From NCBI GenBank assembly GCA_965262785.1, contig OZ253559.1, positions 3,378,457-3,442,456 of the forward strand: a stretch of 64,000 nt of DNA. The letters are read 5' to 3'. The notes under the pieces were generated by a model. It did no database searches. It was not told the DNA's origin and saw nothing but the letters and a program-made list of their open reading frames with translations. The translations under genes were made by a program, and so were the position numbers. Positions 33,402 through 55,816 of the stretch are shown here, piece after piece (position 1 is the stretch's first letter; each line of letters opens with the position of its first letter). This stretch comes from Rhodothermales bacterium (GTDB lineage: Bacteria; Bacteroidota; Rhodothermia; Rhodothermales; Bin80).

Positions 33402-33404
33402 GGG

Positions 33405-37942: not shown

Positions 37943-37957
37943 CGGTTGGAATTGCGC

Positions 37958-40426
37958 ATGTATCGTCCTTTTCTGATACTCCTACTGGTTGCAGGCCTCG
38001 GCACGGGCTGCGCCCAAAGCCCCGAGGTGGACTTTAACGCGGACATCCGTCCGATCCTTAACGAACGCTGTGTGGCCTGCCATGGCGGGATTCGCCGCCA
38101 AGGGGACCTCAACCTGCTGTTTCGCTCGGAAGCGATGGCAGAGGCCGAGTCTGGACTGCATGCGGTAGTGCCGGGCAAGCCGTCGGAAAGCGAGCTCATG
38201 CGCCGCGTAAGCCATGCCGACCCGGAGCAGCGCATGCCGCAAGAAGGAGAAGCGCTGAACGGGGAGGAAATTCGCCAGCTGCGTCAGTGGATCAAGGATG
38301 GTGCACCCTGGGATGCCCACTGGGCGTATGTCGCCCCGGAAAGGCCTAAGCTGCCAGCCGTGCAGCAAAGCGACTGGCCACTGCATGACCTGGATCGCTA
38401 CATCCTGGCACGGCTGGAGGCGGAAGGCTTTGTCCCTTCGCCGCGGGCGGAATGCCCGACCCTGGTGCGCCGCGTGACGCTGGACCTTACGGGACTGGCA
38501 CCTACGCCTGATGACGTCGCGGCCGTCTGCGAAGGCGATACCACCTATGAAGTCTATGTTGACCAGCTGCTTGCGTCACCCCACTACGGTGAGCGATGGG
38601 CTGCGATGTGGTTAGACTTGGCGCGCTATGCCGACTCCAAAGGCTACGAGAAGGATATAGGCCGCACCATATGGAGATACAGGGACTGGGTCGTAGACGC
38701 ATTTAACGCCGACATGCCCTTTGATCAGTTTACCGTTGAGCAACTGGCTGGAGACCTCTTGCCTGCGCCTACCGAAGACCAGCTCATCGCCACGGCCTTC
38801 AACCGGAATACGATGACCAACACGGAGGGCGGCACCGATGACGAAGAGTTTCGTGTGGCCGCAGTCGTGGACCGCGTCAACACGACGTGGGAAGTATGGC
38901 AAGGCACCTCGTTTGGGTGCGTGCAGTGCCATGGCCACCCATATGATCCCTTCCGACACAAAGAGTACTACCAATTCTTCGCCTACTTCAACAACACGGT
39001 CGATCGGGACTACGACGACGAGTACCCTACCCTGCCTCTTTTTGCCGAAGATGCTGCAGCAGAGGGCGCCGCATTGTTTGAGGAGTGGGAGCAGATTGAG
39101 CAGGAGATCCTGCGCCTGGCGGTCGAAGACTCTATCGCACAAGCCCGTCGTGAATGGGAGTCGCAGCTGGATAGGCCTGAGGTCATTGGCCAGGTGCGCA
39201 ACATGTTGCAGAACGAAGTTCGGCGCGTAGCCTTAACGCCAGAGGCCGATCGAGACGCAGCTCAGCAAACGCTGATTGCGTCGGTCTATGCCGGAATCAG
39301 CCCTGATGAGCGCCTAGGCGCGCTGCGCAAGCGTCGGAGCGCGGTCCGCAAGGCCATCAGCGATCTCGGCCCACTGCAGACACCGATTATGCGCGAACTG
39401 CCATCCCGGCAGCAGCGCCTGACGCATGTCTTTGAGCGCGGCAGCTTCCTCGCCCGTAGGGAAGAGGTTACCGCAGGCACGCCCCTGGCACTGCCGCCAG
39501 TGGAGGAAGATGCTCCGCGCAACCGGCTGGGCATGGCCGAGTGGCTCGTCAGCACCGAGAACCCCCTTACCGCACGCGTCACAGTGAATCGCTTCTGGGA
39601 GCAGCTTTTTGGCTCTGGTATCGTGGCGTCACTGGAGGACTTTGGCACGCAAGGCGATGCACCGTCGCATCCATTGCTTTTGGACCACCTCGCGGTGACC
39701 TTCCAGGAAGACTATGCCTGGAGCACGAAGCGCCTTCTGCGCACGCTGGTCACCTCCGCGACTTACCAGCAGTCCTCACACATAACGCCCGAACTGCAGG
39801 CGGCCGATCCATACAACAGACTCCTGGCACGGGGACCGCGGTTTCGACTTACCGCAGAACAGATTCGCGACCAGGCGCTGCTAGTCAGCGGTCTGTTGAG
39901 CACTACCATGCACGGTCCGCCGGTGATGCCACCACAGCCGGAGGGCTTGTGGAATAACCCGTACGACGGCAGGCGATGGGTCACTAGCGAAGGCGAAGAC
40001 CGCTATCGGCGTGCGCTGTACACGTACTGGCGGCGCACAATTCCGTATCCGTCCATGATTACATTCGACAGCCCGTCACGCGAATTTTGCCTCTCCAGGC
40101 GACTTCGTACAAACACGCCACTACAGGCGCTGGTTGGACTCAACGACCCGGTCTATGTAGAAGCCGCGCAGGCCCTGGCACGGCGTATGGCTCAGCGCGG
40201 AAACGGTTCGCGTGGCCAACTTGCAGCGGGGTATGCGCTAGCGCTCGGGCGAGAGCCGCAGGCGGCTGCGCTTGAAGAACTGGCTACACTCTATGAAGAA
40301 GCGCTGGCCCACTATGAGGCCAGTTCGGAGGATGCACAGGCGATGGGTGGCACGGCGGAGCAAGCGGCCTTGGCTGTCGCTGCCAGCGCGATTTTGAACC
40401 TCGACAGCTTTATAATGAAGGAATGA
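37958..40426 (+). CDS. PSCyt1 + DUF1549 + DUF1553 protein without LamG insert (pair 3)
   Basis: ATG 37958 gives the lipoprotein signal MYRPFLILLLVAGLGTGC (a TTG at 37946 is possible). FNADIRPILNERCVACHGG, CVQCHGHPYDP, NPLTARVTVNRFWEQLFGSGIV. Confidence 0.9.
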   Translation: MYRPFLILLLVAGLGTGCAQSPEVDFNADIRPILNERCVACHGGIRRQGDLNLLFRSEAMAEAESGLHAVVPGKPSESELMRRVSHADPEQRMPQEGEALNGEEIRQLRQWIKDGAPWDAHWAYVAPERPKLPAVQQSDWPLHDLDRYILARLEAEGFVPSPRAECPTLVRRVTLDLTGLAPTPDDVAAVCEGDTTYEVYVDQLLASPHYGERWAAMWLDLARYADSKGYEKDIGRTIWRYRDWVVDAFNADMPFDQFTVEQLAGDLLPAPTEDQLIATAFNRNTMTNTEGGTDDEEFRVAAVVDRVNTTWEVWQGTSFGCVQCHGHPYDPFRHKEYYQFFAYFNNTVDRDYDDEYPTLPLFAEDAAAEGAALFEEWEQIEQEILRLAVEDSIAQARREWESQLDRPEVIGQVRNMLQNEVRRVALTPEADRDAAQQTLIASVYAGISPDERLGALRKRRSAVRKAISDLGPLQTPIMRELPSRQQRLTHVFERGSFLARREEVTAGTPLALPPVEEDAPRNRLGMAEWLVSTENPLTARVTVNRFWEQLFGSGIVASLEDFGTQGDAPSHPLLLDHLAVTFQEDYAWSTKRLLRTLVTSATYQQSSHITPELQAADPYNRLLARGPRFRLTAEQIRDQALLVSGLLSTTMHGPPVMPPQPEGLWNNPYDGRRWVTSEGEDRYRRALYTYWRRTIPYPSMITFDSPSREFCLSRRLRTNTPLQALVGLNDPVYVEAAQALARRMAQRGNGSRGQLAAGYALALGREPQAAALEELATLYEEALAHYEASSEDAQAMGGTAEQAALAVAASAILNLDSFIMKE

Positions 40427-41875: not shown

Positions 41876-43390
41876 ATGACAAAGAAGGCGCTAATCAGCC
41901 TTGCCGCAGGACTCGCGTTCCTGTTTCTGATGCTCCTGCTGGTGCCCGGCGGCGGGCGCCCCACGGACTTTTCGTTGTTCCTGGGACGGTTTCACCCGCT
42001 GGTAGTCCACCTGCCAATCGGTATCCTCTTTTTAGGGATACTGTTGGAACTCCTTTCGCGACGCTGGAGCAAGCTACAGCAGTCGGTTTTGACCCTGCTT
42101 TTTGCCGGTGCCTGGGCCGCTATCCTGGCCGCTGTGGTAGGACTGTACCTTGCGCAGGGAGGGGGATATGACCCGGGTACGCTGGCCTGGCACAAGCGGC
42201 TGGGCGTGCTGATAGCGATCGCAGCCAGTGCGGCTTTTGCGTTGAAGTCGTGGCCTGATGTCGCCATGCGGCCGTCGACCATTGCCGAAAGCCGCGGATA
42301 CATTGGTTCTGTCGCGGCCCTGGTGCTCTTTGTGGCGCTCGCGGGACACCTGGGCGGCCAGCTTACCCACGGCGACGGGTTCCTCACGCGGTACATGCCG
42401 AATGGATTGCGATCGATAGCGGGCCTTCCGAAGAAAGAAGACATTGGAAAGCTGCAACTTGAGGATCCAGCCAAGACCACCACCTTTGATGCCCTGATTG
42501 CACCCGTGCTTCAGGAAAAGTGCGTGAGCTGCCATCGGGAAGATCGAGCGCGGGGCGGACTTGCTTTGGACACGCCGGAGTCCCTGTTGGCTGGTGGCGA
42601 TGACGGCCCTGTCGTCATTGAGGGGCGCGCCGAAGAGAGCGAGCTGATCCACCGCGTGTGGCTTCCTCTGAACGCCGACGACCACATGCCGCCGGAAGGT
42701 AGCCCGCAGCTCACAGTAGCGGAGGCCGAGCTTGTGCGATGGTGGATTGACGCGGGCGCTTCGCTTGAGGTGATGCTGGCTGATGCGGAGGTGACGCCAG
42801 TGGTCCAGACCATCCTGGACGGGTATGGTCTGGATGAGATCAAGACCGGCATCTTCGCTCTCGACACTGCGCAGCCGGATTCCAATGACATCGCTGCGCT
42901 TGAGGCATTGGGCGTATCCGTCACGGCCCTCGCCGAAGATGTGCCCTACCTGCAGGTACGCTGCACGAATCTTGATGCCTGCAATACGGCAGAATTTGCA
43001 CAGGGGCTTCGCCCGCTTTCACGTAGCGTGGCATGGCTCGACCTGGGGCGTACTGAAGTGGGTGACGCGATTCTGGATGTAGTCCAGGAGCTTCCGCACC
43101 TTACGCGTCTATATTTGCAGCAGACGGCGGTAACGGATGCCGGGCTTTCAAACCTCGAAGGCTTGGAGTTTTTGGAGTATCTGAATCTTTATGGAACCAG
43201 CGTCAGCGATACCGGCCTGGTTGCGCTTGCCGGCCTGCCTTCCCTCCGCTCGCTGTACCTGTGGCAGACTCAAGTTACCGACGAAGGTGTCGCCAGCCTG
43301 CAGGCGGCAGCGCCGAGCCTTTACATCAACACCGGGCTTAGCCTTGAACCGGTAGTCATGGAAGAAGAGGAATCCGAAGACGCAGAATGA
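41876..43390 (+). CDS. membrane protein: multi-TM DUF2231-like N-domain + PSCyt1 cytochrome-c-like domain + leucine-rich repeats
   Basis: ATG 41876 (MTKKALISLAAGLAFLFLMLLLV). About 5 hydrophobic helices including ..FHPLVVHLPIGILFLGILLELL... Then ..IAPVLQEKCVSCHRED.. (CxxCH). Then LRRs (..LTRLYLQQTAVTDAGLSNLEGLEFLEYLNLYGTSVSDTGL..LRSLYLWQTQVTDEG..). Confidence 0.85.
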   Translation: MTKKALISLAAGLAFLFLMLLLVPGGGRPTDFSLFLGRFHPLVVHLPIGILFLGILLELLSRRWSKLQQSVLTLLFAGAWAAILAAVVGLYLAQGGGYDPGTLAWHKRLGVLIAIAASAAFALKSWPDVAMRPSTIAESRGYIGSVAALVLFVALAGHLGGQLTHGDGFLTRYMPNGLRSIAGLPKKEDIGKLQLEDPAKTTTFDALIAPVLQEKCVSCHREDRARGGLALDTPESLLAGGDDGPVVIEGRAEESELIHRVWLPLNADDHMPPEGSPQLTVAEAELVRWWIDAGASLEVMLADAEVTPVVQTILDGYGLDEIKTGIFALDTAQPDSNDIAALEALGVSVTALAEDVPYLQVRCTNLDACNTAEFAQGLRPLSRSVAWLDLGRTEVGDAILDVVQELPHLTRLYLQQTAVTDAGLSNLEGLEFLEYLNLYGTSVSDTGLVALAGLPSLRSLYLWQTQVTDEGVASLQAAAPSLYINTGLSLEPVVMEEEESEDAE

Positions 43391-45123
43391 AACTCTGGCC
43401 ACTACTTCTTTTCGCCGCCCTAAGCTGCGCGGTTCCAGCCCCCGACGTAACGGTTGAACAGCCGCCAACGCTCGATCGTCCGAACATCGTATGGATTTCA
43501 GCGGAAGACATGGGGCCCCGTTTGGGTGCTTACGGCGACAGGGTGGCTCAAACGCCCAACCTCGATTTGCTTGCCACCAAGGGCACACGCTATACGCGCG
43601 TGTTTACTACTGCCGGGGTATGTTCGCCCAGCCGCGCCGCGATCATCACTGGGATGCACCAGGTATCTCTTGGCGCCCAGCACATGCGAACACTGTCGGG
43701 AGCACCCTTTGCGCCCGAGCCCACACCTTACTCGGTGGTACCGCCGCACTATGTAAAAACGTTTTCGGAGTATCTCCGCGCGGCAGGATACTATACCTCG
43801 AACAACGGCAAGGAGGACTACCAGTTCGAGACGCCTGTGACGGCGTGGGATGAGTCCAGCAGAACAGCGCACTGGCGCAATCGCCCAGAGCAAGACCAAC
43901 CCTTTTTTGCGGTGTTTAATATCATGACTACGCACGAGAGTCGAGTCTGGCCGGATCCGCAGGCAGCGTTTCGTGCGATGGGCCTGCCGGAGGCCATGGC
44001 ACATCCTGCACCGGCACCCTTGGTCACCGATCCCGCTGCCGTCACGGTGCCTCCGTACTACCCGGACACGCCCGTAGTGCGCCGCGACCTTGCGCAGCAG
44101 TACGACAACATCAGCAGGATGGACGCACAGGCCGGCGAAATCTTGCGGCAACTGGAAGAAGATGACCTGCTCGAGAACACCGTGGTGTTTTTCTGGAGCG
44201 ACCATGGCGACGGCCTTCCGCGCCACAAGCGTTGGGTGTACGACTCCGGCCTTCACGTACCGATGATTATCCACGTGCCGGGGCAGTCCCCTGGCGTAGA
44301 TGACCAGCTTGTCAGCTTTCTTGATTTGGCTCCCACGGTGCTCTCGTTGGCAGGCGTAGAGCCGCCTATGCACATGCAGGGTCGTGCGCTGCTGGGAAGG
44401 TTCGCGGGCAACAAGGCGGGCCATGACTATGTCTACGCGGCGCGCGACCGCTTTGACGAGCAGTATGACATGGTGCGCGCGGTGAGGGATACGCGCTTCA
44501 AATACATCCGAAACTACCGTCCAGAGAAACCATACGTGCTGTGGATGGCATACGCTAACGTGATGCCCACGATGCAGGAGCTTTTTCGGCTGAACCGTGG
44601 GGGCGAACTGGATGACGTTCAGCAGCAATGGTTGCGAACGAAGCGGCCGGTTCACGAGCTCTACGATACCGAGCGGGACCCGTACGAGGTAAACAATCTC
44701 GCGTACGATCCGGCGCATAGAGAGACCCTTGCGCGGCTGCAGGAAGAATTGGACTCGTGGATGACGGCTGTTGGAGATAAGGGGTTTAATTCAGAGCTGG
44801 ACATGGTAAATACTATGTGGCCTGATGGCATGCAGCCGAGGACCCAGCCTGTGGCCATCCTTCCACGTGCCACGATGAGCACGGCGCTTGTCCCTTCCGG
44901 GCTGGACCCTGCCGCAAGTGGCGGGGTGTTTGACGCGCCTGTAGAGATAGAGATGTATAGTCCTACGCAGGGGGCGTCTATCACTTACACTACCGGAGAT
45001 CGATGGCTACTATACCATGAGCCGATTGTGGTAACTGCCACCACCACCATCGAGGCCAAAGCAGTCCGCTACGGATATCAGGAGAGTGACGCTGTCGAAG
45101 TCACCGTTACGATCGGCTTGTAA
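43387..45123 (+). CDS. sulfatase (formylglycine-dependent arylsulfatase family)
   Basis: ATGA overlap with the upstream stop. Signal peptide MKLWPLLLFAALSCA. Active-site motif GVCSPSRAAIITGM (CxPxR). ..FFWSDHGD... Confidence 0.9.
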   Translation: MKLWPLLLFAALSCAVPAPDVTVEQPPTLDRPNIVWISAEDMGPRLGAYGDRVAQTPNLDLLATKGTRYTRVFTTAGVCSPSRAAIITGMHQVSLGAQHMRTLSGAPFAPEPTPYSVVPPHYVKTFSEYLRAAGYYTSNNGKEDYQFETPVTAWDESSRTAHWRNRPEQDQPFFAVFNIMTTHESRVWPDPQAAFRAMGLPEAMAHPAPAPLVTDPAAVTVPPYYPDTPVVRRDLAQQYDNISRMDAQAGEILRQLEEDDLLENTVVFFWSDHGDGLPRHKRWVYDSGLHVPMIIHVPGQSPGVDDQLVSFLDLAPTVLSLAGVEPPMHMQGRALLGRFAGNKAGHDYVYAARDRFDEQYDMVRAVRDTRFKYIRNYRPEKPYVLWMAYANVMPTMQELFRLNRGGELDDVQQQWLRTKRPVHELYDTERDPYEVNNLAYDPAHRETLARLQEELDSWMTAVGDKGFNSELDMVNTMWPDGMQPRTQPVAILPRATMSTALVPSGLDPAASGGVFDAPVEIEMYSPTQGASITYTTGDRWLLYHEPIVVTATTTIEAKAVRYGYQESDAVEVTVTIGL

Positions 45124-45170: not shown

Positions 45171-45800
45171 ATGAATTGGAATTCGCTATCTTCCTGCCGC
45201 GATCTCAATTCGGCAATCATTCTTCGAGCAATTCAAACTTTGGATAGCGCCATGGCGTAGCTGGCTCTTATTGACCTCGAGACCAATCTCAAGGACGTAG
45301 CGGAGCTCATTGAGGCTCATAAAGAATTGACTGGAGGAAAGCGCGGGAAGCCTCGAGAAGGCAAGGGCGCGGCGGTGGTTCGTTCTGGTGTTGTGCTTCT
45401 GCTGGCGGCCGTGGAGGTCTACGTGGAGGCCCTCTTTGAAGAGGCTGCACCACATATATTCGCGAAGTCGTCGGGTAAGAAACTTGATGTACTCTTCCGT
45501 AACACTAGCAAACGGCTGCACAGTGCATCATACGACAATATCGAGATGCTGTATTTCAATTTGGGTTTGCCGTGGGTGCTGTCGGAAATCAAATGGCAGA
45601 AGTTTTCGAACGACTCGGTAAGAAGGGCATTCACAAAACTAGTGAAGACTCGGCATGATATTGCACACGGCAAGTTCCCTGGCGTTACGCTGCAACAGCT
45701 TAAGAAATGGAAGGTAATGGTTGAGAAGTTTGCACCAATTCTTGAAGCAAGGGTGTCCAATCACATTGCCGATATTAAAGGTGCGCCTCCCGGTTGGTAG
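45171..45800 (+). pseudogene. HEPN-domain protein (RiboL-PSP/MAE_28990-like), interrupted by an in-frame TAG at 45258..45260
   Basis: Reading from ATG 45171: MNWNSLSSCRDLNSAIILRAIQTLDSAMA*LALIDLETNLKDVAELIEAHKELTGG..VVRSGVVLLLAAVEVYVEALFEE..LVKTRHDIAHGKF.. (Rx4H HEPN motif). The ORF track only finds the TTG-initiated 45327..45800 part. Confidence 0.65.
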
Positions 45801-46158: not shown

Positions 46159-47973
46159 TTGGGCGCAGGCCAATACGACTGCGCCGTGTACATCCGCAGG
46201 AGAGTCTACAAGCTCAAAGATGCAACGCAACGCACCGGATACGGACTGCTCGAATGCCGACGTGTCAATGGCCAGCCCAATCAAAAAACCATCCTGAACC
46301 TTGGACAGGACTTTGACATTGCCGAAGCCGACTGGCCCACCGTAACCAAGCGGGTTGAGCTGGCACTGCGCGGACAGCGCGCACTACCGCTGGAGGATGA
46401 GAAGATCGAATGCGCCGTGGACGAGATCGTGCGCCGGCTGCGTGAGAAGGACTACGATGTGGACGCCGGACGCGACGACCGCGACGCCATCATTACCGAC
46501 GCAGTGCATCATCCGGATACACGCACGGTCGGCGGCGAGCGCGTATGCCTGCAAGCCTTGGAGCAACTCGGCTTCACGGCGCTGCTACGCGCGCTGGGCA
46601 TGCGAGAAGATGCTATTCGCATGGCCCTGGTTCTGGTGGTTGGGCGCATGTTGTCGCCCGGAAGTGAGGCGCATACGTACCAGTGGATGATGAAGGCCTC
46701 CGCCATTTTGGAGCTGGTGCAGCTGGAGGCCCCGTGCGCAAGTACGCTGTACCGGGTAGGCGATCGGCTGTATGCGCTGCGCGAAGCGCTTATGGACGGA
46801 CTCTATGGCAATGCGCAGCGGCTGTTGGGCTTTAGTGAGACGCTCATCTTGTATGATCTGACCAACACATTCTACACGGGTCGCAAGAAAGGCGCGCTCC
46901 TGGCGTATGGACGAAGCAAGGAAAAGCGATCGGATTGTCCGTTGGTGACGTTGGCCTTAATGCTGGACGCGTCCGGCTTTGTGCGTGGCGCAGCCGTCCT
47001 TGCTGGCAATGCCAGCGAACCAAAGACGCTTCAACAGGCCATGGAGCGGCTCAATGGCGCTCGTGCGACCGTCATCATGGACGCGGGCATAGCCACGCGC
47101 GCCAATGTGGCGTACTTGCGGTCGAAGGGACTGGATTGGATCTGTGTGCAGCGCACGCAGGCGCCGCCACCCCCTGAACGCGCGCCGGAGGAGTGCTGGA
47201 ATACACAAAGCGGGGTCTCCATCAAAGCCTGGCGCCTGGAGCAGCAAGAGGGAACGCTGCAAGTCTACCTGCATAGCGAGGCACGCAAGGCCACCGGTGA
47301 TCGCATACTGAACACCAGGCGCGCAAAGTTCGAGGCTGCGCTGAAAACCCTGCACGAGGGACTCTCCAAGCCCCGCTGCGTCAAGGAATACGACAAGGTG
47401 CAACGCAGACTCGGTCGCGAGCTCGAAAGGCATAAGCGCGTCTCGTACCAGTACAAGATCGATGTCTTGCGCAAAAAGGACAGTACGCACGCGAAGGCGG
47501 TCACCTTTACGCACCTGTCTGCGTTTGAGCAGCAGACGCAAGCATCGGGCGGCTACATCCTGCATACCAGCCACACGGACTGGTCTGCCTCGCAAATCGC
47601 ACGCACATACTGGAAGCTTGCAGACATCGAGCGCACGTTTCGTTCGCTGAAGTCCGAGTTGGGCATGCGTCCCCTATACCACAGCAAGGATGAGCGCATC
47701 CGGACACACATCTTCCTCTCGGTACTGGCCTATCAGGCGGTGCAACTCATTCGCACGAAGCTGAAGCAGTATGACCTCCACAGCAGCTGGACCACGCTGC
47801 AGTTTGAGCTGAACCGGTGGCACCGGATCACGACCGTATTGCCAACAGACCGGCGCTCCTGCATTCTGTTGAAGAAGGATGCAGACCAAGGTCCGCTCCA
47901 GCGCCAGATCGCCATGATTATGGGCCTCAAGCCTCACAACTACACCTACAAGGCGCACACAAAACGACCCTGA
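46159..47973 (+). CDS. IS1634-family DDE transposase
   Basis: The N-terminus ..VYKLKDATQRTGYGLLECRRVNGQPNQKTILNLGQDF.. is typical of IS1634 (..vreGgKvrq.tl.nLG...). ..LILYDLTNTFYTG.., ..VIMDAGIAT.NV..L.., ..YWKLADIERTFRSLKSELGMRPLYH.. carry the DDE signature. The start codon is uncertain. Confidence 0.85.
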   Translation: MGAGQYDCAVYIRRRVYKLKDATQRTGYGLLECRRVNGQPNQKTILNLGQDFDIAEADWPTVTKRVELALRGQRALPLEDEKIECAVDEIVRRLREKDYDVDAGRDDRDAIITDAVHHPDTRTVGGERVCLQALEQLGFTALLRALGMREDAIRMALVLVVGRMLSPGSEAHTYQWMMKASAILELVQLEAPCASTLYRVGDRLYALREALMDGLYGNAQRLLGFSETLILYDLTNTFYTGRKKGALLAYGRSKEKRSDCPLVTLALMLDASGFVRGAAVLAGNASEPKTLQQAMERLNGARATVIMDAGIATRANVAYLRSKGLDWICVQRTQAPPPPERAPEECWNTQSGVSIKAWRLEQQEGTLQVYLHSEARKATGDRILNTRRAKFEAALKTLHEGLSKPRCVKEYDKVQRRLGRELERHKRVSYQYKIDVLRKKDSTHAKAVTFTHLSAFEQQTQASGGYILHTSHTDWSASQIARTYWKLADIERTFRSLKSELGMRPLYHSKDERIRTHIFLSVLAYQAVQLIRTKLKQYDLHSSWTTLQFELNRWHRITTVLPTDRRSCILLKKDADQGPLQRQIAMIMGLKPHNYTYKAHTKRP

Positions 47974-48071: not shown

Positions 48072-48143
48072 TGGTCGAATTCGTGCCCAGCGATTGGGGT
48101 ACACTTCAAATTTTCGCCCGGACTTCTAGACCTAACCGACATC

Positions 48144-49748
48144 CTAGATGTCCAACTGTTCCGCCATCGCGTCCAGTTTCTCGACCACTTCCGGATGTAC
48201 TTCATCTCTCCGCATCCCTGCCGCAATTCCGTAGTACTCCGCCTCGCCTACCTGTACTAGGGCCGCATCACATACCTTGTTCAGTACATCTTTTCCCTTT
48301 CTTCCCTCGAAATAATCGGAGTCGAACGGCTTCTTGCGGATCGCCCGCGGAAAGTATTCATCCATGTGGTCATTTGCCCTATCAACCGCCTTGCTGTCAC
48401 TCCGCACTCTTAGCCACCGTAGGATGGCTTCAGGATGAATCAAGTAATTCTCGATCTCGTACCGTTCCCACACCAGCAGCCTCATTCCTTCCGGGCGTGA
48501 AGTCTCACCAACCCCTTCACCTTTGTCGTTCCTGTCACGCAACTCCACTCCTCTCAGAGTCGGGACGTTGAGCCGCAGGGCCTCGAAGTGTCGTGCCGGT
48601 TTAACGTTATCCTCGGCAGTCGTCCTCCAAAGCGGTTCCTCCAAGAATCGGTGCAAAGGATGTTCCAGAACCGCTGCCCAAGCCCTCAATATATCCAAGT
48701 CTGTTCCCCCTTCCACATACAAGATGCGTTCTACTTGCTTTGCCAACATTAGGTCGAAGTTGTCCAGCCGCAACGACTCAACCAAGCTCTGCACCTTCGG
48801 AATCTTGTACAACTCCTCGGCTAAGATTCGCAGATCCTTAGGCTGAGCGTTCCTTATTATCTGCTCCGAGTGCGTCGCGATGATCAGTTGCCATCCGTTA
48901 CGCTTCGCGCGTTCCCTCAAGCCACGGTAAAGTCTCTCCTGCAAGAAAATATGGAGGTGTGCATCCGGCTCGTCGATCAACATCACCGATCTGTCCCGCT
49001 GGAAGATAGCCGCGTATATCAGCACGATCTGCAAAAACCCGGCCGCCCCGCTACTATAGTCTAAAGACCACGTATCCGGGCCTTCACGGTATCCGGCCTG
49101 AATTTCGGCACCCGCGCTTGGCAAAGTCAATTCGTACCCAAACAGATCTGATACGATTTTTTTGAGCTCTTCCCACTTGCCGGCATCGCCGCTGACACTC
49201 AGGAGCAAATTGCGCAGAACCGTCCCTCCCTGCCCTCTTGCGAGTCTCGCGGAAACCACTTCCGGTCTATGACGCTCCTCGCGCAAGTCTACTCCTGACA
49301 TCGGCGGAACGTAGACGGGTATCAATGGATCCTGGATATATTGTTCCAGAACCGATTCCGAAACGTCACGCATTGGCCGCACATGTACACTGTTCCGATC
49401 CTTATAGAGAAGTTCGAATCCGAGTGCGTGTCCATCGATGTACAATCGAATTGACGCTGGATTTGTCACGTTTCGCGCTGGCCACAAATGATCCCAATCT
49501 ACCAGCGCCATCGATGAAACTGTCCGCACGTTTAAAAAATCGCTGCTGGGATAATCTCCATTATCGTCACGGACAAGATCAGGCATGTACTGCGCCCAGT
49601 GCGACGCGATCTCTGACCAGAAAGCAATAGCCTGTAGAAGTGTGGTCTTGCCACAATTGTTGGGCCCTACAATCACCAGATGCTCCGCCAGTGTGCAGTC
49701 TAAATCCTTGAAGCGCTTAAGATTCCGAATCACCAGTCGCTCAATCAT
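48144..49748 (-). CDS. ABC-type ATPase fused to DUF4435/TOPRIM-like domain (OLD / fused PARIS-like), last gene of the Ubl operon
   Basis: ATG 49748 (MIERLVIRNLKRFKDL..). Walker A IVGPNNCGKT. Walker B VMLIDEPDAHLH. IIATHSEQ. Then ILYVEGGTDLDILRAW.., ..ELRDRND.., ..YEIENYLIHPEAI.. typical of DUF4435. The start overlaps the stop of the upstream gene by 8 nt. Confidence 0.85.
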   Translation of the reverse strand: MIERLVIRNLKRFKDLDCTLAEHLVIVGPNNCGKTTLLQAIAFWSEIASHWAQYMPDLVRDDNGDYPSSDFLNVRTVSSMALVDWDHLWPARNVTNPASIRLYIDGHALGFELLYKDRNSVHVRPMRDVSESVLEQYIQDPLIPVYVPPMSGVDLREERHRPEVVSARLARGQGGTVLRNLLLSVSGDAGKWEELKKIVSDLFGYELTLPSAGAEIQAGYREGPDTWSLDYSSGAAGFLQIVLIYAAIFQRDRSVMLIDEPDAHLHIFLQERLYRGLRERAKRNGWQLIIATHSEQIIRNAQPKDLRILAEELYKIPKVQSLVESLRLDNFDLMLAKQVERILYVEGGTDLDILRAWAAVLEHPLHRFLEEPLWRTTAEDNVKPARHFEALRLNVPTLRGVELRDRNDKGEGVGETSRPEGMRLLVWERYEIENYLIHPEAILRWLRVRSDSKAVDRANDHMDEYFPRAIRKKPFDSDYFEGRKGKDVLNKVCDAALVQVGEAEYYGIAAGMRRDEVHPEVVEKLDAMAEQLDI

Positions 49749-50112
49749 GCCTGTTCTCCTTCGGTATTCGTAGCGGCGGATCCTGGGCCCAGACGATACA
49801 TCCTCGCCGAAACCAATAGTGGCAATCACACTGCAATCCAGTTACATGCACGGACGGCGTGAGCGATACACGTCCAGTGCTGTGCTCCTTGATACGCCAT
49901 CTGGGCCTTGCCTCGTGTGCCAAATCGAGATGGACGACCCGTTTGCATCTACGCCGCAAACAGACAATGGCCGCATAGAATGGATGTTGGCGCCCTCCTA
50001 TGATGTAGATCGTGTTGTGCTTAGGATCCAATGGTAAATCTTCGACCCATTCCGTCCGGTAGGGGTGTAGGCGAGCCCACGCATTCCATAGTAACCTGGG
50101 CAACCTAAGCAT
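49741..50112 (-). CDS. DUF6527-like Cys/His-rich small protein
   Basis: ATG 50112, overlapping the E1 stop by 8 nt. 123 aa: ..AAIVCLRRRCKRVVHLDL..RPRWRI..VSLTPSVHVTGLQCDCHYWFRRGCIVWA.. follows the pattern I associate with DUF6527 (C..C...l.l....W....tl.PSi...C..H.fi..G.i.w). The ORF-track N-terminal extension to 50295 overlaps the E1 gene and is rejected. Confidence 0.7.
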   Translation of the reverse strand: MLRLPRLLWNAWARLHPYRTEWVEDLPLDPKHNTIYIIGGRQHPFYAAIVCLRRRCKRVVHLDLAHEARPRWRIKEHSTGRVSLTPSVHVTGLQCDCHYWFRRGCIVWAQDPPLRIPKENRHD

Positions 50113-51496
50113 TTGTGATATTGTTTTGCACAAGCAGACTTCGGTCGCCAGCAGCGACGTACCGCTGCAACAGACTATGTGCCCCCCCCGGGGCGGCATC
50201 ATTCTCGAACGAGCCGTGAACCAACCGGAAGCGTTGCGTAGTGAAGTCGCTGTTGGCGTCAAGGCGGAAAGCTGAGATTCGCGCCAAGAAATCATTGAAC
50301 GCGAGGCAGGCCGCCTGCATGTTCACCGACATCACCGCTGGCTGCTCTTCACCAACCGCCGCCAAGTAGCCCGCAAGGCGTTGTTGATCGTAGTACTCTA
50401 AATCGGCACGGCGCCACTGTTCCGCAGTCACCTGGTCCATGGTGTAGGCTCCGCGTGAAAGCAGGCTGGTACCCCCAGGATGAACGTAATGCGCAACGGC
50501 ATCCGCCGACGAGATACCCCCTTCCCCATCCGCGTCAAGATCTACACCCACGTCGAAGTAAGGAATCAGGTATGCGCTCGCTATACAATCCAGATGATAG
50601 CGGCCGAAGGCGGTGTCCACACACCCGAAGATCACATCGCAATCAATCAAGGCCCTTACAATGGCCGCGGAATCTGTTAGCCCTTCGCACGCATGGACGA
50701 CCGTCCCAAGTCCGATCTGCTCTACAGCCTCCCTTAGAGCCAGTACCTTCGGTCGTCTCAGGCGGGCATCCGAAGATGTGCTGTTGACAATTCGGTTCAG
50801 GTTAACCGCGTCTATCGTATCGTCGTCAACGATGACCAATTCTCCGACCGCGTTACGGGTCAACAATTCCACAACGATGCTCCCTGTACCGGAGCAACCA
50901 ACCACTCCGACGCGCATCCCTCGCAGCAGCTCAAGCGTACCCCGTCCGAAAGTCTGCCTAAGTCGGGATTCGTGAGCCTCTTCGGGACTCTTGGCAGCTA
51001 GCTTCCAGGACTTGATTTCGTCGCCTACCACCGCGACTGTCTGGATCTCTCCAAATGCCCCCGTTTCATCGACCGTCCGTGCTCTGATTAGGCCGTTTGC
51101 CTGCATCACTGCCGCTCCATGCGGCCTCCTATCATCGAACCAACCCGAAACGGATTTCAGCAACATCCGATCGTTCTGATCGTCAATCGGTGAGAAGCGT
51201 GCCTCACCAACTGGATGGGAGTGTATCGTAACGATCGACTGATCCCGTTGATCAATGTTAGTGATCAAGCTGGGCGACACAGTCTCGGCAAAAGGCCACA
51301 ACACTGCGTCGTGACGCCGTTGGCATACCTCGTACGGAGGGCAAACAATATCCGCGACGAGAAGGCGTTGCCCGAACTTGCCGGCGCCACGGTTGCAAAG
51401 CAGAATCGCAGCCGCCTCCAGTCCATCACCTGGGAACAGGTAGTCCATAAGGACACCGTGGGAAGCCGCCGTCATTGCAAGCGTCGTCTCGGTCAT
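50105..51496 (-). CDS. JAB/JAMM metallopeptidase - ThiF/E1 adenylyltransferase fusion
   Basis: 463 aa. N-terminal ..GLEAAAILLC.. and ..TIHSHPVGEARFSPIDD.. give an exact JAMM motif (E...HxHx7Sx2D). Central MRVGVVGCSGTGSIVVELLTRNAVGELVIVDDDTIDAVNLNR is the E1/ThiF nucleotide-binding Rossmann motif. ATGA overlap with the E2-like gene. Confidence 0.9.
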   Translation of the reverse strand: MTETTLAMTAASHGVLMDYLFPGDGLEAAAILLCNRGAGKFGQRLLVADIVCPPYEVCQRRHDAVLWPFAETVSPSLITNIDQRDQSIVTIHSHPVGEARFSPIDDQNDRMLLKSVSGWFDDRRPHGAAVMQANGLIRARTVDETGAFGEIQTVAVVGDEIKSWKLAAKSPEEAHESRLRQTFGRGTLELLRGMRVGVVGCSGTGSIVVELLTRNAVGELVIVDDDTIDAVNLNRIVNSTSSDARLRRPKVLALREAVEQIGLGTVVHACEGLTDSAAIVRALIDCDVIFGCVDTAFGRYHLDCIASAYLIPYFDVGVDLDADGEGGISSADAVAHYVHPGGTSLLSRGAYTMDQVTAEQWRRADLEYYDQQRLAGYLAAVGEEQPAVMSVNMQAACLAFNDFLARISAFRLDANSDFTTQRFRLVHGSFENDAAPGGAHSLLQRYVAAGDRSLLVQNNITNA

Positions 51497-51882
51497 CTAC
51501 GTACCTCATGGCGCAGTTGCCGCTTGACATATTCCACATGGCTCACGATCGAATCCTCACCCGCTGTCCAACTGTAGTGTCGCGACCAACGTTGCCACGA
51601 TCTCTCGAAGTGAGATTCTGACGCCAGAGCTTTTATGCCCACTCCATCGGACCGTGCCAAGGGAGGGTCAAAGTAGAACATGTCGAGCGCCGACCCTGGA
51701 TAGCCGCTAGGAATCAAGACCATCAGAGTTGACGTCTCGCAGTTGAACCCCTCCGGAATGGGGAAGTGGTCGATCAAAAGGGCATTCTTGCCGGGACCTA
51801 CCGAATTGATGGACCAGCGCTCTTCAAAGTTTCCATCAAGATATTCTGAATCCTCCGGTGGCAATGCTACCGAAGCAATCAT
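51493..51882 (-). CDS. prokaryotic E2/UBC-fold-like protein (Prok-E2_E-like)
   Basis: 129 aa. ..STLMVLIPSGYPGSALDMFYFDPPLARSDG...FERSWQRWSRHYSW.. matches what I recall of the Prok-E2_E family, which accompanies Multiubiquitin and JAB-E1 genes. ATGA overlaps at both ends. Confidence 0.7.
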   Translation of the reverse strand: MIASVALPPEDSEYLDGNFEERWSINSVGPGKNALLIDHFPIPEGFNCETSTLMVLIPSGYPGSALDMFYFDPPLARSDGVGIKALASESHFERSWQRWSRHYSWTAGEDSIVSHVEYVKRQLRHEVRR

Positions 51883-52601
51883 TGACCCTGCTGCGCTTGA
51901 CGGCGGACAGACTCGAACCGCTCAATTCCGGGTGCTGTTAAGTCAACCCAGTCTCCGTCCACTTTGACTCGCTTGCCACCGGTTAGCTTTTGGTTCAGCG
52001 ACCACTCCTCAAGACTCTTGCCAGCGCGTTCAAGAATCTCCTTACCATTGATCTTCTCTGTACCAGCCAAGTACGTGTCGCGATCAAGCCGGTATCGGTA
52101 GGTGCAGCCGCTTGGCGGCCGGCGGCCGTGCTTACCACATTCTTCCACATCAATAGGTCCACGGACATCCCCAGGTGGAATCACGAAATATGAATCGGTG
52201 TTCTGTACGACTAGTCGCTTGTCATCGTCTATTTCCACATCGACGCCGTCTGGAATGTCTGCAAACAAACGCCCGTCCGGAAACTGCGGATCATGTGCCT
52301 TTAGGGCTTGAGCCCTTATTTTGGACCGAGACAGAGCAATGTCGTGAGCGCCGTTAAACTCCGGCTTTAGCTCCTTGCGAAGAGGAGGATCGTTTTCGAT
52401 TTGGCTATCGCCGAGAACAAATTTCTCGTTGCCTTGGATGAGGAGATATTCCTCAGGCAATATGGGAATGTCTACGTCATCTTCACGGTTGAGAAACAGG
52501 CGTAGTGGATGACAGCCAGCAAGTTCGTATAGCTGAGCACCGCTTACGAGGCCCGAGGCGCTCTGTTGACTCTTCCCGCCAATGTGAATCACTACAGTCA
52601 T
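51879..52601 (-). CDS. multi-ubiquitin protein (three tandem beta-grasp/Ubl repeats)
   Basis: 240 aa with three ~65-75-aa repeats: MTVVIHIGGKSQQSASGLVSGAQLYELAG..IPILPEEYLLIQGNEKFVL; ..EFNGAHDIALSRSKIRAQALKA..VEIDDDKRLVVQNTDSYFVI; ..YRYRLDRDTYLAGTEKINGKEILERAG..VKVDGDWVDLTAPGIERFES. First gene of the operon. Confidence 0.8.
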   Translation of the reverse strand: MTVVIHIGGKSQQSASGLVSGAQLYELAGCHPLRLFLNREDDVDIPILPEEYLLIQGNEKFVLGDSQIENDPPLRKELKPEFNGAHDIALSRSKIRAQALKAHDPQFPDGRLFADIPDGVDVEIDDDKRLVVQNTDSYFVIPPGDVRGPIDVEECGKHGRRPPSGCTYRYRLDRDTYLAGTEKINGKEILERAGKSLEEWSLNQKLTGGKRVKVDGDWVDLTAPGIERFESVRRQAQQGQ

Positions 52602-52692
52602 TTTCGTTGGTTCGATATGCTAAGGAAGCTTTGATTTACGGGGTAATGGAGGCTTGTCACACGGCAACGGGTCCACGAACTAATCAAGAGGG

Positions 52693-53064
52693 TTAGTTGC
52701 ACGCCAAATTGAACACTCTTCCGTGCGGCCGCCTGAGCTTTGGATGCCTTGGAAGCACTAGCTGCGATTCCAAGACATACCTATCCCAGTAACTGCATTG
52801 CTTAGAAAAAGGTCCTATTTCAGATTCAAAGACTACTCGGTCCCCCGTGATGACCCTATTCATAGTGCCGACACGACGCCCCAATTCCAAGAGGTAAATC
52901 GGACACTGTTGAGGCCATGCAGCGTCGTGCTCGTTCCCGCCGGAGTCTCTGCTACCTACGAGATGGTACAACGCCCACCACCTTTCACCCTCCCTCTTCC
53001 CCGGGCACACAAATACGAACCGTCCTCTTATTCGCCTAAATCGCGATTGAAGGTGTCTCTGCAC
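52693..53064 (-). CDS. hypothetical ORF upstream of the Ubl operon (weak)
   Basis: 123-aa ORF with no recognisable motif. An internal ATG (MNRVITGDRVVF..) would give only 56 aa. Listed only because it lies between the IS256-disrupted ORF and the operon on the same strand. Confidence 0.25.
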   Translation of the reverse strand: MQRHLQSRFRRIRGRFVFVCPGKREGERWWALYHLVGSRDSGGNEHDAAWPQQCPIYLLELGRRVGTMNRVITGDRVVFESEIGPFSKQCSYWDRYVLESQLVLPRHPKLRRPHGRVFNLACN

Positions 53065-53413: not shown

Positions 53414-54508
53414 ATGTCTATTCTGCTTTCTATGCACGGACTACACACGCATCCCACCCATCTTGACAGCGTCTCTGGCGCTGATCTGCGCGCCTCTGGT
53501 GACTGGCGTCTCTACCTGGTCAGGCAGTTCAGCGAGATCATGGAGTTGCTCGGCCGAGAGGGGGCAGCGCGGCATGAGCGCGCCAATGCAGGCGGGGCTG
53601 ATGGTCTGGAACTGGAAGCGCCTGTAGCCAGCGCCGATACCGCAGCGTGTACCTGCTGTGCGAGCTGCGTATCCACGCGGGAGGGGCCGAAGCTCGCGCC
53701 TTCTGGTGCGCAGCCACTGGACCCTTTGGTGTCAGCCCACGCGGAGCGGGCCCTGGAAGTATTCACTACTCGGCCATTGTCACAGGACGACTTCGGGGCG
53801 TTGTGGATCGACGCCGCCTATGTCCTGGGCACGCAGTATGTCTTCTGCATAGGCGCTACGATGACGGGACACAGACGGATCCTGAGCTTTGTAGCTTCGT
53901 CGCTGGAGGACGCCGCACTTCTGAGTCGGATGCTGCAGCAGCTCACCGAGCGGGGGCTTTGCACGGAGCGAGGAATCTTGTGCGTGATCCCGGGGGGAAG
54001 CGGCCTCTGCGAGGCACTCGCGACCCGCCTGGCCGATTCCGCCCAGGTGCAACGGTGCCAGGTGCAAAAGACCCGGCGTGTGCTGAGCTATCTGCCCGAG
54101 GAGAAGCGTATGGAGGTGCGCTGCGCTTTGCGTCACGCGTGGGAGGCAGCCGACTACGAGACGGCCCTACGGGCGCTGATGCGTGTGCACAGCACGGTGG
54201 CCCGCGAGAACCGCACCGCGGGCTGCTGCCTGAAGGAGGGGCTCAAGCAGACGCTGACCTTGCACCGGGCCGGAGTCTTTGCCGCCCTGGGTCGGAGCCT
54301 TAAGACCACCAGCGTGATTGGCCGTGTCAGCCAACGCTTAGTCACACGCTTGAGGCAGTATGCCCGGTGGATGCCACCGGAGCAGCGCGAGGCGTGCATG
54401 GCCCTGGGACTGCTGGAAATGGAAACAGGCCTGTACCGTCTGGCCCACGCTGCATACCTTGCGCGCCTTCGCAATACCCTCTTCGGCGAACGTACTACTG
54501 AATGCTAA
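53414..54508 (+). CDS. degenerate IS256-like transposase paralog lacking two DDE residues
   Basis: Aligns by eye with the downstream transposase: ..ALWIDAAYV.. versus ..LWIDGKHF.. (first D kept); ..CVIPGGSGL.. versus ..CMVDGSKGI.. (second D replaced by P); ..LKTTSVIGRVSQ.. versus ..LRTTNSIENLNS.. (E replaced by G). The N-terminal ~120 aa is unrelated. Confidence 0.6.
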   Translation: MSILLSMHGLHTHPTHLDSVSGADLRASGDWRLYLVRQFSEIMELLGREGAARHERANAGGADGLELEAPVASADTAACTCCASCVSTREGPKLAPSGAQPLDPLVSAHAERALEVFTTRPLSQDDFGALWIDAAYVLGTQYVFCIGATMTGHRRILSFVASSLEDAALLSRMLQQLTERGLCTERGILCVIPGGSGLCEALATRLADSAQVQRCQVQKTRRVLSYLPEEKRMEVRCALRHAWEAADYETALRALMRVHSTVARENRTAGCCLKEGLKQTLTLHRAGVFAALGRSLKTTSVIGRVSQRLVTRLRQYARWMPPEQREACMALGLLEMETGLYRLAHAAYLARLRNTLFGERTTEC

Positions 54509-54523
54509 TTCACCCTTGTACCT

Positions 54524-55816
54524 ATGAAGACCCCTACCACCGCTTCTTTTCCTTTGGACCTCTTCGGAGAGCTCATGCGTGCCTTCAGCCCGTGCAGCAT
54601 GCAGGCGAAAATCAACGCGGTGCTGAACATCGGCACGTTTATCCAGCACATGGCCTTGCAGATCATCAGTGACGAGGTAGCTGCGCTTTGCGGAACTTAC
54701 CGCAGCAGACGCCACAGGCCGCACCAGGGGCGTTACCTGCGCTGGGGCTACAATCCAGGGTCCATCCGACTGTGGGGGCAGCGGGTACGCATCCGCGTGC
54801 CGCGCGTGCACGACACCCGCACGAACAAGGCGCGCCCCCTTGAGAGTTACCAACGACTTCGCAGCACGAAGGTAGATGATGAAAAGCTGACCGAGATGTT
54901 GCTCATGGGAATCAGCCAGCGCAACTACCAGCGGGCCGCCCGGCAGTTTGCCGAGGCCTTTGGTCTGAGTGCGACCTCGGTCCGGCGCAGGTTTATCAAG
55001 CGTGGCGCCCAGACGCTGGAAGCGTTCTTTGAGCGTCGGCTGGACAGCCTGGACCTGGTGGGCCTGTGGATCGACGGCAAGCACTTTGCGAAGTACCAGA
55101 TGATGGTCGTCATGGGGCTGACCCTTACCGGCGAGAAGGTAGTACTGGGGTTTGCGCAGGTACCTTCGGAGAATACCGAGGCCATCCAGGGGCTTCTGGA
55201 AGCCCTGATTGCCCGTGGGCTACGCTTCCAGCAAGGACTGCTCTGCATGGTGGATGGGTCCAAGGGCATACACGCGGCTGTAGACAAAGTCTTTGGAAAG
55301 TACGCGCTCATTCAGCGCTGCTGCTGGCACAAGCAAGAAAACGTGGTGGCTCATCTGAACAAAGAGGATCAGGATCACTGGCGTAAGCGTCTGCAGGCGG
55401 CCTATCGAAAGCCCACTTACGCGGAGGCCAAGGCTGCGCTGACGATGATCCAAGAGACGTTGAAGACCAGCGCACCCAAGGCTGCCTCGAGTCTCGCGGA
55501 GGGCATGGAAGAGACACTGAAGCTGCATCAACTCGGACTGGCCAAACCGCTGGGCCGAAGCTTGCGAACTACCAACAGCATCGAGAACCTGAACAGTGCC
55601 TTCAGTCGCCTCTTCCACAACGTGACGCACTGGATGCACTCGGATCAGATTCAACGGTGGATGGCGCTGGGGGCCATGGAATCCCTTCGTAACTTGCAGC
55701 GGATTCCCCAAGCAGAGCATCTTCCGAAGCTACGCATGGCTTTACATGAACACATAAGTTGCACAGCACAATTGAATACTACCTCCACGCTACTGAGGAC
55801 GCCTTCCACCAACTGA
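54524..55816 (+). CDS. IS256-family (Mutator) DDE transposase
   Basis: 430 aa. ..LVGLWIDGKHFAKYQMMVVMGLTLTGEKVVLGF.., ..LLCMVDGSKGIHAAVDKVFG..IQRCCWHKQENV.., ..RSLRTTNSIENLNSAF.. match the IS256 D, D, E blocks. Confidence 0.85.
   Translation: MKTPTTASFPLDLFGELMRAFSPCSMQAKINAVLNIGTFIQHMALQIISDEVAALCGTYRSRRHRPHQGRYLRWGYNPGSIRLWGQRVRIRVPRVHDTRTNKARPLESYQRLRSTKVDDEKLTEMLLMGISQRNYQRAARQFAEAFGLSATSVRRRFIKRGAQTLEAFFERRLDSLDLVGLWIDGKHFAKYQMMVVMGLTLTGEKVVLGFAQVPSENTEAIQGLLEALIARGLRFQQGLLCMVDGSKGIHAAVDKVFGKYALIQRCCWHKQENVVAHLNKEDQDHWRKRLQAAYRKPTYAEAKAALTMIQETLKTSAPKAASSLAEGMEETLKLHQLGLAKPLGRSLRTTNSIENLNSAFSRLFHNVTHWMHSDQIQRWMALGAMESLRNLQRIPQAEHLPKLRMALHEHISCTAQLNTTSTLLRTPSTN

Follow-up and report, generated by a model that had tools for sequence, protein, structure and literature searches.

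A predicted operon uniting a Type I Bub ubiquitin-like conjugation pathway with an OLD-family ATPase-nuclease in a Rhodothermales bacterium

Bub, whose chemistry has been solved, is the third ubiquitin-like conjugation pathway of bacteria. Type I Bub operons encode the ubiquitin-like protein (Ubl) BubA, often fused to the E2 protein BubB, the JAB-E1 protein BubCD and the DUF6527 protein BubE; conjugation proceeds via a tyrosine oxyester on the crossover loop of E1 and a serine oxyester on E2, while BubE acts as a Ser-His protease and has a Cys4 zinc site (bioRxiv 10.1101/2024.11.21.623953). Table S1 of the same preprint lists about 30 Type I operons in which Ubl and E2 are encoded separately. 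The reference operon is that of Citrobacter sp. RHBSTW-00271, formerly called '6E.1/DUF6527' (PDB 9EA4, 9EA5, 9EAE and 9EAV; Ye, Gong, Chambers and Corbett, 2024 preprint, cited elsewhere as Nat Struct Mol Biol 2026). Proteins of the OLD family have been described in four genomic contexts, namely as solo genes, with a UvrD-like helicase, in retrons and in PARIS (PMC12392090). Here we analyse a locus in which representatives of both appear to be combined. It lies at positions 48144-52601 of a 64,000-nucleotide stretch of a Rhodothermales bacterium (assembly GCA_965262785.1, contig OZ253559.1, positions 3,378,457 to 3,442,456), hereafter the window, to which all coordinates refer unless a locus number is given. 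We lean towards the view that this is a mobile five-gene operon, in which an OLD-family ATPase-nuclease has become fixed as the fifth gene of one lineage of Type I Bub and is tied to the Ubl machinery.

The five minus-strand open reading frames (ORFs) of the locus, genes i-v, were found by an ORF check exactly where a preliminary description of the window had placed them. The junctions overlap by 4, 4, 8 and 8 nt (ATGA, ATGA, ATGCTTAG and ATGATTGA, read off the sequence), and the minus strand inside the block contains no match to a sigma-70-like promoter, consistent with the operon structure suggested earlier; a promoter and terminator scan of this strand gave nothing informative. The domain assignments made at that time (Multi_ubiq, Prok-E2_E, Prok-JAB with ThiF, DUF6527 and AAA_21/AAA_15) were borne out by Pfam, while an NCBIfam search placed none of the five proteins above any family cut-off, and PADLOC has no models for BubA, BubB and BubE. 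The preliminary description also regarded genes i-iv as a cassette known from comparative genomics only and Bub as a pathway of different architecture. Neither view can be kept: the '6E/DUF6527' operons are Bub, genes i-iv match Bub part by part, and Type I Bub has been solved structurally and assayed (bioRxiv 10.1101/2024.11.21.623953). Genes i-iv are thus predicted to form a complete Type I Bub operon (BubA, BubB, BubCD and BubE), and the identity of the parts of the locus is, in our estimation, close to certain.

The gene bubA (51879..52601, minus strand) encodes a 240-aa triple Ubl protein with a Pfam Multi_ubiq match at 2.5e-8 (residues 169-230). Its build of three beta-grasp-type repeats is supported by their comparison with each other as hhalign profiles, in which probabilities of 92.6% for repeats 1 and 2 and 87.7% for repeats 1 and 3 were obtained, and of only 25.5% for repeats 2 and 3; a PDB sequence search with BubA returned no match. 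The protein ends in the motif A236-Q-Q-G239 followed by the single residue Q240, which would have to be removed to expose G239. In 55 BubA homologues the AQQG motif is at least 95% conserved and is followed by a tail of 0-12 aa or by an in-frame E2 domain. The gene bubB (51493..51882, minus strand) codes for a 129-aa E2-like protein (Prok-E2_E, 1e-27) that matches BubB of PDB 9EAE_C at 4.2e-21, with the WSRH motif aligned. Residues D67, S100 and H102 correspond in this alignment to D299, S333 and H335 of Citrobacter BubB and are at least 95% conserved in 78 sequences, among which no cysteine is conserved.

The 463-aa BubCD protein (50105..51496, minus strand) comprises a JAB/JAMM domain (about residues 1-165; Prok-JAB, 5e-7) and an E1 domain (ThiF, 2e-21), and matches Citrobacter BubCD (PDB 9EA4) at 2.5e-71. 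Residue-level alignment of the two proteins identified the JAMM residues E27, H92, H94, S102 and D105, the adenylation residue R235, and the crossover-loop residue Y377, equivalent to Y370 of Citrobacter; all of them are invariant in 31 sequences and at least 95% conserved in 79. Gene iv (49741..50112, minus strand) had been described as a DUF6527 zinc protein. The DUF6527 assignment stands (Pfam, 2.2e-15), but the 123-aa product is more than a zinc-binding protein, being most probably the Ser-His protease BubE, a function taken from the work of Ye et al. Its residues C51, C56, C95 and C97 and the S87/H98 dyad are at least 95% conserved in 68 sequences, and it carries a hydrophobic N-terminal extension. 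Every published catalytic residue of Bub is conserved in the genes of the window.

Gene v (48144..49748, minus strand), overlapping bubE by 8 nt, encodes a 534-aa protein. About residues 1-320 (48789..49748, minus strand) form an ATP-binding cassette (ABC) ATPase domain of the OLD-ABC/AAA_15 type (AAA_21/AAA_15 at 1e-20, and SMC_N), containing the Walker A motif GPNNCGKT (K34), the Walker B residues D259/E260 and the H-loop residue H293. These residues are 100% conserved in 53 homologues linked to Bub and in 78 linked to restriction-modification (R-M) systems. The remainder (residues 326-534; 48147..48773, minus strand) was assigned as an OLD-type TOPRIM and helical region by Foldseek comparison of AlphaFold2 (AF2) models. 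The model of the whole protein (predicted local distance difference test, pLDDT, 90) has as its best PDB match Thermus OLD (6P74, 1.8e-13), followed by PtuA and GajA, while the model of the C-terminal part (pLDDT 92.9) matches the Class 2 OLD structures 6NJX/6NK8, the catalytic regions of Xanthomonas and Burkholderia proteins, with an E-value of 6e-4, a probability of 1.0 and a template modelling (TM) score of 0.50-0.57 over about 220 columns. The earlier reading of gene v as an ATPase joined to a TOPRIM domain is therefore upheld, by Pfam for the former and by structure comparison for the latter. The accompanying label DUF4435/PARIS is dropped, because Pfam searches at E<=10 with the whole protein and with its C-terminal 218 aa alone revealed neither DUF4435 nor TOPRIM nor any other C-terminal family, and the fold is that of an OLD-family TOPRIM; the match of the C-terminal model to AriB (8UX9_A) is weak (probability 0.84, TM 0.33). 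PDB sequence and profile searches with gene v yielded matches in the ATPase part only.

The C-terminal part of gene v displays the acidic pattern E346-x3-D350, D405-x-N407 and E431-x-E433, in which E346, D350, D405, E431 and E433 are 100% conserved in both Bub-linked and R-M-linked homologues. Position 407 is Asp in 99% of R-M-linked proteins and either Asp (53%) or Asn (45%) in Bub-linked ones. In OLD nucleases metal A is bound by a Glu and a DxD motif and metal B by residues of the types D/E, S/T/E and E (PMC7049728); the pattern of gene v follows the order of the metal A and B ligands of Ts and Bp OLD, the mapping being one of motif order and not of superposition. On account of the fold matches and the order of the acidic motifs, the product of gene v is predicted to be an OLD-family ATPase-nuclease. 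It falls outside all four published OLD classes, since its neighbours are Bub genes or, in its relatives, Type III mod and res genes.

Two other ATPase genes of the window resemble gene v only locally. The first (19729-21372, minus strand) codes for a 547-aa protein of AAA_21 and a true Pfam DUF4435 domain, that is, a fused PARIS-like protein, whose likeness to gene v is confined to the Walker B region; it is located directly downstream of a gene for a 1644-aa Type ISP R-M enzyme (21399-26333, minus strand; Mrr_cat_2, ResIII, ISP_coupler, N6_Mtase and Type_ISP_C). The second (8255-9865, plus strand) encodes a 536-aa AAA_15/AAA_21 ABC ATPase, in which no C-terminal domain was assigned and whose similarity to gene v is limited to the surroundings of Walker A and Walker B.

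The linkage of gene v to Bub extends well beyond this genome, as the preliminary description had supposed. A scan with a BubCD profile, using one genome per species, detected 80 loci, which together with one further locus gave 81. In 50 of them a homologue of gene v (36-73% identical) immediately follows bubE, and at all 46 measurable junctions the stop and start codons of the two genes overlap. The genes beyond the five-gene block are not conserved among the loci; therefore, it is the block itself that is kept. Between gene v and BubCD, pairwise distances show a correlation of rho 0.63 (Mantel p 0.001), comparable with the values of 0.69 for BubCD and BubB and 0.70 for BubCD and BubE. Of four more homologues of gene v checked singly, three belonged to such an operon and the fourth stood alone; an earlier pair was divided evenly between the two situations. 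Grouping by identity matrices and average-linkage clustering joined the Bub-linked gene v proteins into one cluster, cleanly apart from the R-M-linked proteins and including three solitary copies. Lysines K191 and K486 of gene v are 85-89% conserved in the Bub-linked copies and absent from the R-M-linked ones. It is very likely that the five genes constitute one selected unit.

Judging by the record titles, the hosts of this unit belong to about 8 phyla (Chloroflexota, Longimicrobiales, Rhodothermales, Latescibacterota, Thermodesulfobacteriota/Dadabacteria, Nitrospirales, Alpha- and Gammaproteobacteria and Binatia). Without exception, the 80 related loci derive from uncultured metagenome-assembled genomes (MAGs), several of which have sponge-related names (Poriferihabitans, Spongiihabitans, Porisulfidus and Tethybacter) and, by these names, appear to be sponge-associated, so that the module seems to circulate across phyla mainly in one habitat. 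Relatives of gene v in the metagenome collection of the Joint Genome Institute (JGI) are at most 38% identical, none of them being close, and no relatives were detected when viral contigs of IMG/VR were scanned with the BubCD profile. The closest relative of the window operon (L164; 89% nucleotide identity by blastn over 52841..48113) is located on a 30.7-kb contig, which also encodes a relaxase, two ThsA/ThsB Thoeris sets, an IS256-type transposase, an integrase, GmrSD and another AAA_15 protein, and which looks like a small, possibly circular, mobile element laden with defence genes. In some loci (L167, 1856-3060; L010 and L013-L015) the operon is preceded by a divergent pair of genes for helix-turn-helix (HTH) and Peptidase_M78 proteins, which resembles the CapH/CapP regulators described for Bub and is absent from the window.

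The Bub loci lacking gene v represent a sister clade, with BubCD proteins 48-56% identical. In 18 of these loci the genes for a 434-aa AAA_15 ATPase, matching the PADLOC model NsnB at 1.4e-52, and a 177-aa PIN protein with an intact acidic quartet (D12/E57/D116/D134) are located directly upstream of bubA. At least 11 loci share the order Mod - ATPase - PIN - BubA - BubB - BubCD - BubE - Res, a Type III R-M system enclosing the Bub genes; the clusters are co-oriented and tightly packed (L054-L078; e.g. L063, 2397-12616). Mod and Res of these clusters are homologous (31-41%) to the proteins flanking metagenomic relatives of gene v. The possibility that the 177-aa protein is a split-off TOPRIM domain of gene v was rejected, as the hhalign probability was 0.1% and PIN motifs were present instead. 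One locus, L061, contains a cyclic permutation of the eight-gene set.

When 1.8 billion proteins were searched for the C-terminal domain of gene v, only 415 clusters at 50% identity were returned. One of them, P0252 (806 aa), consists of a complete BubA homologue (41% identical, ending in AQQG) fused in frame to a complete homologue of gene v (39%). It is encoded on two contigs from two samples (L173, 8001-10421, and L174, 2339-4759), with no E1, E2 or BubE genes nearby. A gene for an NsnB-like AAA_15 and DUF3696 protein lies just upstream, and DUF1156, DUF499 and Eco57I R-M genes are found around it.

Away from Bub, 80 distant metagenomic relatives of gene v (30-38% identity; L084-L163) were found, and in none of them are Bub genes adjacent. 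A Type III methyltransferase gene lies just upstream in 47 of the 80, with a median overlap of about 4 nt, and a gene for a ResIII/Type III Res helicase just downstream in 43; the flanking Mod and ResIII proteins are about 920 and 1040 aa long (e.g. L087, 3221-10760). The idea that these relatives are solitary genes was discarded, since neighbour clustering places most of them between the Type III methylase and ResIII helicase genes. One other relative follows genes for a methylase and a PLD-SNF2 helicase.

The surroundings of the operon in the window agree with the mobile, defence-island setting proposed for it earlier. As claimed, transposase genes are present on both sides and a HEPN gene is adjacent: Pfam identified a DDE_Tnp_1 transposase gene (46159-47973) and a HEPN_RiboL-PSP gene (45327-45800) on one flank, and two tandem ORFs for Mutator/IS256-type transposases (53414-55816, plus strand) on the upstream flank. 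The block is also AT-richer, with a GC content a few percent below that of the 27-45 kb stretch (0.52-0.57 across 48-53 kb against about 0.59-0.62). A conserved 240-nt leader upstream of bubA (52602..52841, minus strand) aligns to L164 at 92%, and a promoter scan found no consensus sigma-70 promoter in it. The leader, at whose position 52841 the homology to L164 begins, contains the 3' remnant of an upstream gene, which L164 has in intact form (193 aa); a 123-aa ORF upstream of bubA (52693-53064, minus strand) is only partly homologous to this 193-aa gene, and the native upstream region of the window copy looks truncated. At the other end the homology to L164 stops 31 nt past the stop codon of gene v, marking the 3' edge of the conserved cassette (48113..48143, minus strand). 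Elsewhere in the window, a 760-aa ORF (5696-7978, minus strand) represents an odd fusion of Druantia DruA with the Tn5-type domains Tnp_DNA_bind, DDE_Tnp_1 and Dimer_Tnp_Tn5, and the regions 28762-40426 and 43387-45123 (both plus strand) encode a sulfatase and three large cytochrome proteins of planctomycete type (PSCyt1/PSCyt2/PSD1), a hint at the kind of host.

By homology to the solved and assayed proteins, the operon would carry out ATP-dependent conjugation of BubA via oxyester intermediates. BubC, the JAMM domain, would trim BubA after G239; BubD would adenylate G239 and carry BubA as an oxyester on Y377, from which BubB would accept it on S100 for transfer to a lysine. The conjugates would be removed by BubE through its S87/H98 dyad and Zn-Cys4 site. 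Gene v may provide the nucleic-acid-cutting arm, in which a two-metal TOPRIM nuclease would be gated by an ABC ATPase, in the manner of OLD, Gabija and PARIS. Attachment of BubA to the nuclease or its complex, or docking on it, could then act as a reversible on/off switch, with BubE performing the off step. A reversible switch of this kind, with a Ubl acting on the nuclease or on its complex, is the form of the tie that we favour as most likely; direct action of BubA on the nuclease itself is put forward tentatively and with little confidence, and the naming of K191 and K486 of gene v as candidate acceptor lysines is speculative. That Bub works with the ATPase-gated nuclease, and not merely beside it, is suggested by the constant coupled pairing of the two, by the independent pairing of Bub with another ATPase and nuclease in the sister clade, and by the single fusion at the site of Ubl processing. 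We infer a role in defence or conflict from the mobile element carrying Thoeris and GmrSD, from the CapH/CapP-like pairs and from the nesting in Type III R-M operons, and consider action of the operon in defence to be reasonably probable.

The data can be explained in other ways. The operon might carry two independent systems on one transcript, with an autonomous Class-1-like OLD defence nuclease sharing nothing but regulation with Bub, in the way of nested genes in defence islands, and no interplay between the proteins. Bub works biochemically without gene v, relatives of gene v occur without Bub, in R-M operons or alone, and the Bub-linked and R-M-linked clades do not differ in how well their ATPase and nuclease motifs are conserved, with no clade-specific insertion. 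Type I Bub operons of cultured bacteria also dispense with the fifth gene: among 112 records of plasmid-borne BubCD relatives (35-44% identity), the four operons inspected all end at bubE, and therefore gene v marks a sub-lineage of Bub and is not a general feature of it. However, independence would hardly account for a stop/start overlap kept at every measurable junction in about 8 phyla, a co-divergence of gene v as tight as that among the Bub genes, lysines specific to the Bub-linked copies, a sister clade that independently pairs Bub with another ATPase and nuclease, and a protein in which BubA and gene v are fused; we regard this explanation as unlikely. In a second alternative, gene v is a portable abortive-infection nuclease that docks on a host machine, whether Type III R-M or Bub, and fires when a phage inhibitor disables that machine. 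Precedents for such a guard are PrrC, which is embedded in the EcoprrI R-M locus, and PARIS, which senses Ocr. It would fit the occurrence of one family, with translational coupling, in two host systems unrelated to each other (after bubE as well as between mod and res), the position of the AAA_21 and DUF4435 gene of the window immediately downstream of the Type ISP R-M enzyme, and the frequent linkage of Menshen NsnB-type ATPases to bacteriophage exclusion (BREX) and to Type I and III R-M systems (PMC12065111). All of this is evidence from context, and the model leaves unexplained both the fusion of BubA with gene v and the joint travel of Bub with an ATPase-nuclease pair inside an R-M operon in the sister clade, and seems less probable still. 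Finally, the operon could serve a response to stress or DNA damage, with Ubl tagging and the OLD-type nuclease/ATPase acting on host repair or replication proteins: the Bub authors leave a general role in stress response open, many Bub operons are under DNA-damage-sensing regulators according to the Bub papers, and OLD-type ABC ATPases are structurally related to Rad50, SMC and RecF. The patchy distribution, with horizontal transfer across phyla and unconserved flanks, the position of the closest relative beside Thoeris and GmrSD on a mobile element, and the association with R-M systems make a purely non-defensive function very improbable.

Several observations weigh against a nuclease tied to Bub for defence, the reading that we prefer. 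Protection against phage has been reported for none of the Bub operons, and as of mid-2026 the Bub authors still state that there is no phage phenotype and that the targets and biological role of the pathway are unknown. Relatives of gene v clearly appear able to work without Bub, given their presence between mod and res, after the methylase and PLD-SNF2 helicase genes, or alone, and the plasmid operons of cultured bacteria show the converse. The fusion of BubA to the nuclease is the only one of its kind among 5.8 billion proteins and could be a deletion product. As to the window copy itself, insertion sequence (IS) elements bracket the cassette and the upstream gene is truncated, so that it may be poorly expressed or weakened; Asn (N407) in place of the second Asp of the TOPRIM DxD motif may, together with the truncation, point to the same.

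The four-gene core of Bub is already known, and what is new here is its linkage to a nuclease. No description of any of the four arrangements, namely the five-gene Bub-OLD operon, the eight-gene Bub set nested in R-M, the BubA-OLD fusion and the mod-OLD-res operon, was found in the Bub papers, in Table S1 or in the further literature searched, whose coverage was incomplete; this is not proof of novelty. From the OLD-linked lineage, the ATPase-PIN lineage and the fusion of BubA to a nuclease, it follows that the partner or target of Bub is probably a nucleic-acid-cutting ATPase machine. The linkage offers the first testable clue to the role of Bub. It also places OLD-family nucleases in a new genomic context, beyond the four classes published so far, and reveals a putative defence module spread over about 8 phyla. 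If the control of a nuclease by Bub proves true, it would supply the missing effector of the pathway and its first phenotype. The broader proposition that the Bub pathway exists to control a nuclease, the Bub-OLD operon, the Mod-ATPase-PIN-Bub-Res set and the BubA-OLD fusion being three forms of one hitherto unrecognised class of Ubl-regulated nuclease defence, is doubtful at present.

In comparison with known systems, the window operon is nearest to Type I Bub of Citrobacter, with which genes i-iv share the same four components in the same order: a Gly-ended triple beta-grasp Ubl, an E2 with the Asp/Ser/His set and without Cys, a JAMM-E1 protein with the adenylation Arg and crossover Tyr, and a DUF6527 protein with a Ser-His dyad and four Cys. 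It differs in that BubA ends in a one-residue tail, whereas in Citrobacter the E2 is fused to it; in the spacing of the BubE cysteines, which is unlike the CxCxC...C of Citrobacter; and in the fifth, translationally coupled OLD-type gene, which is found neither in the Bub paper nor in Table S1 nor in the four plasmid operons. The product of gene v shares with the OLD family (Class 1 Thermus scotoductus OLD 6P74, P2 Old and Vc OLD; Class 2 GajA and Bp/Xcc OLD 6NK8/6NJX) an ABC ATPase at the N terminus and a TOPRIM domain at the C terminus in one chain of about 535 aa. However, it has no UvrD-type helicase, retron or AriB-type partner, being embedded in Bub or, in its relatives, between Type III mod and res, and it stays below the threshold of the Pfam family OLD-like_TOPRIM, for which a distant relative scores only 0.0036. 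PARIS consists of the ABC ATPase AriA and the DUF4435 TOPRIM protein AriB, or of a fused AriAB. Gene v likewise has an AAA_15/AAA_21 ATPase, and among the PADLOC models it matches that of fused AriAB best (1.5e-26, the match running from Walker B into the TOPRIM region; AriA, 7e-22), but it lacks a Pfam DUF4435 match and its similarity to AriB in fold is low.

The ATPase-PIN pair of the sister clade recalls Menshen, in which the OLD-ABC ATPase NsnB is paired with the PIN-like effector NsnC: the sister ATPase is NsnB-like and the gene following it encodes a small PIN protein. Unlike in Menshen, no NsnA was seen in the sister loci, a full Bub operon comes after the pair, and the PIN protein keeps its acidic quartet, while the PIN-like domains of Menshen are described as inactive. 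Bil (BilABCD) and the Cap2/Cap3 proteins of Type II cyclic-oligonucleotide-based anti-phage signalling systems (CBASS) are also bacterial E1/E2/JAB conjugation modules in defence operons, but they use Cys thioester chemistry and another E1 architecture, and have neither DUF6527 nor an OLD-type partner. Conjugation in CBASS primes the system's own signalling enzyme (literature summarised in the Bub papers), and by analogy CBASS may be taken as the closest precedent for a Ubl-type step that controls an effector.

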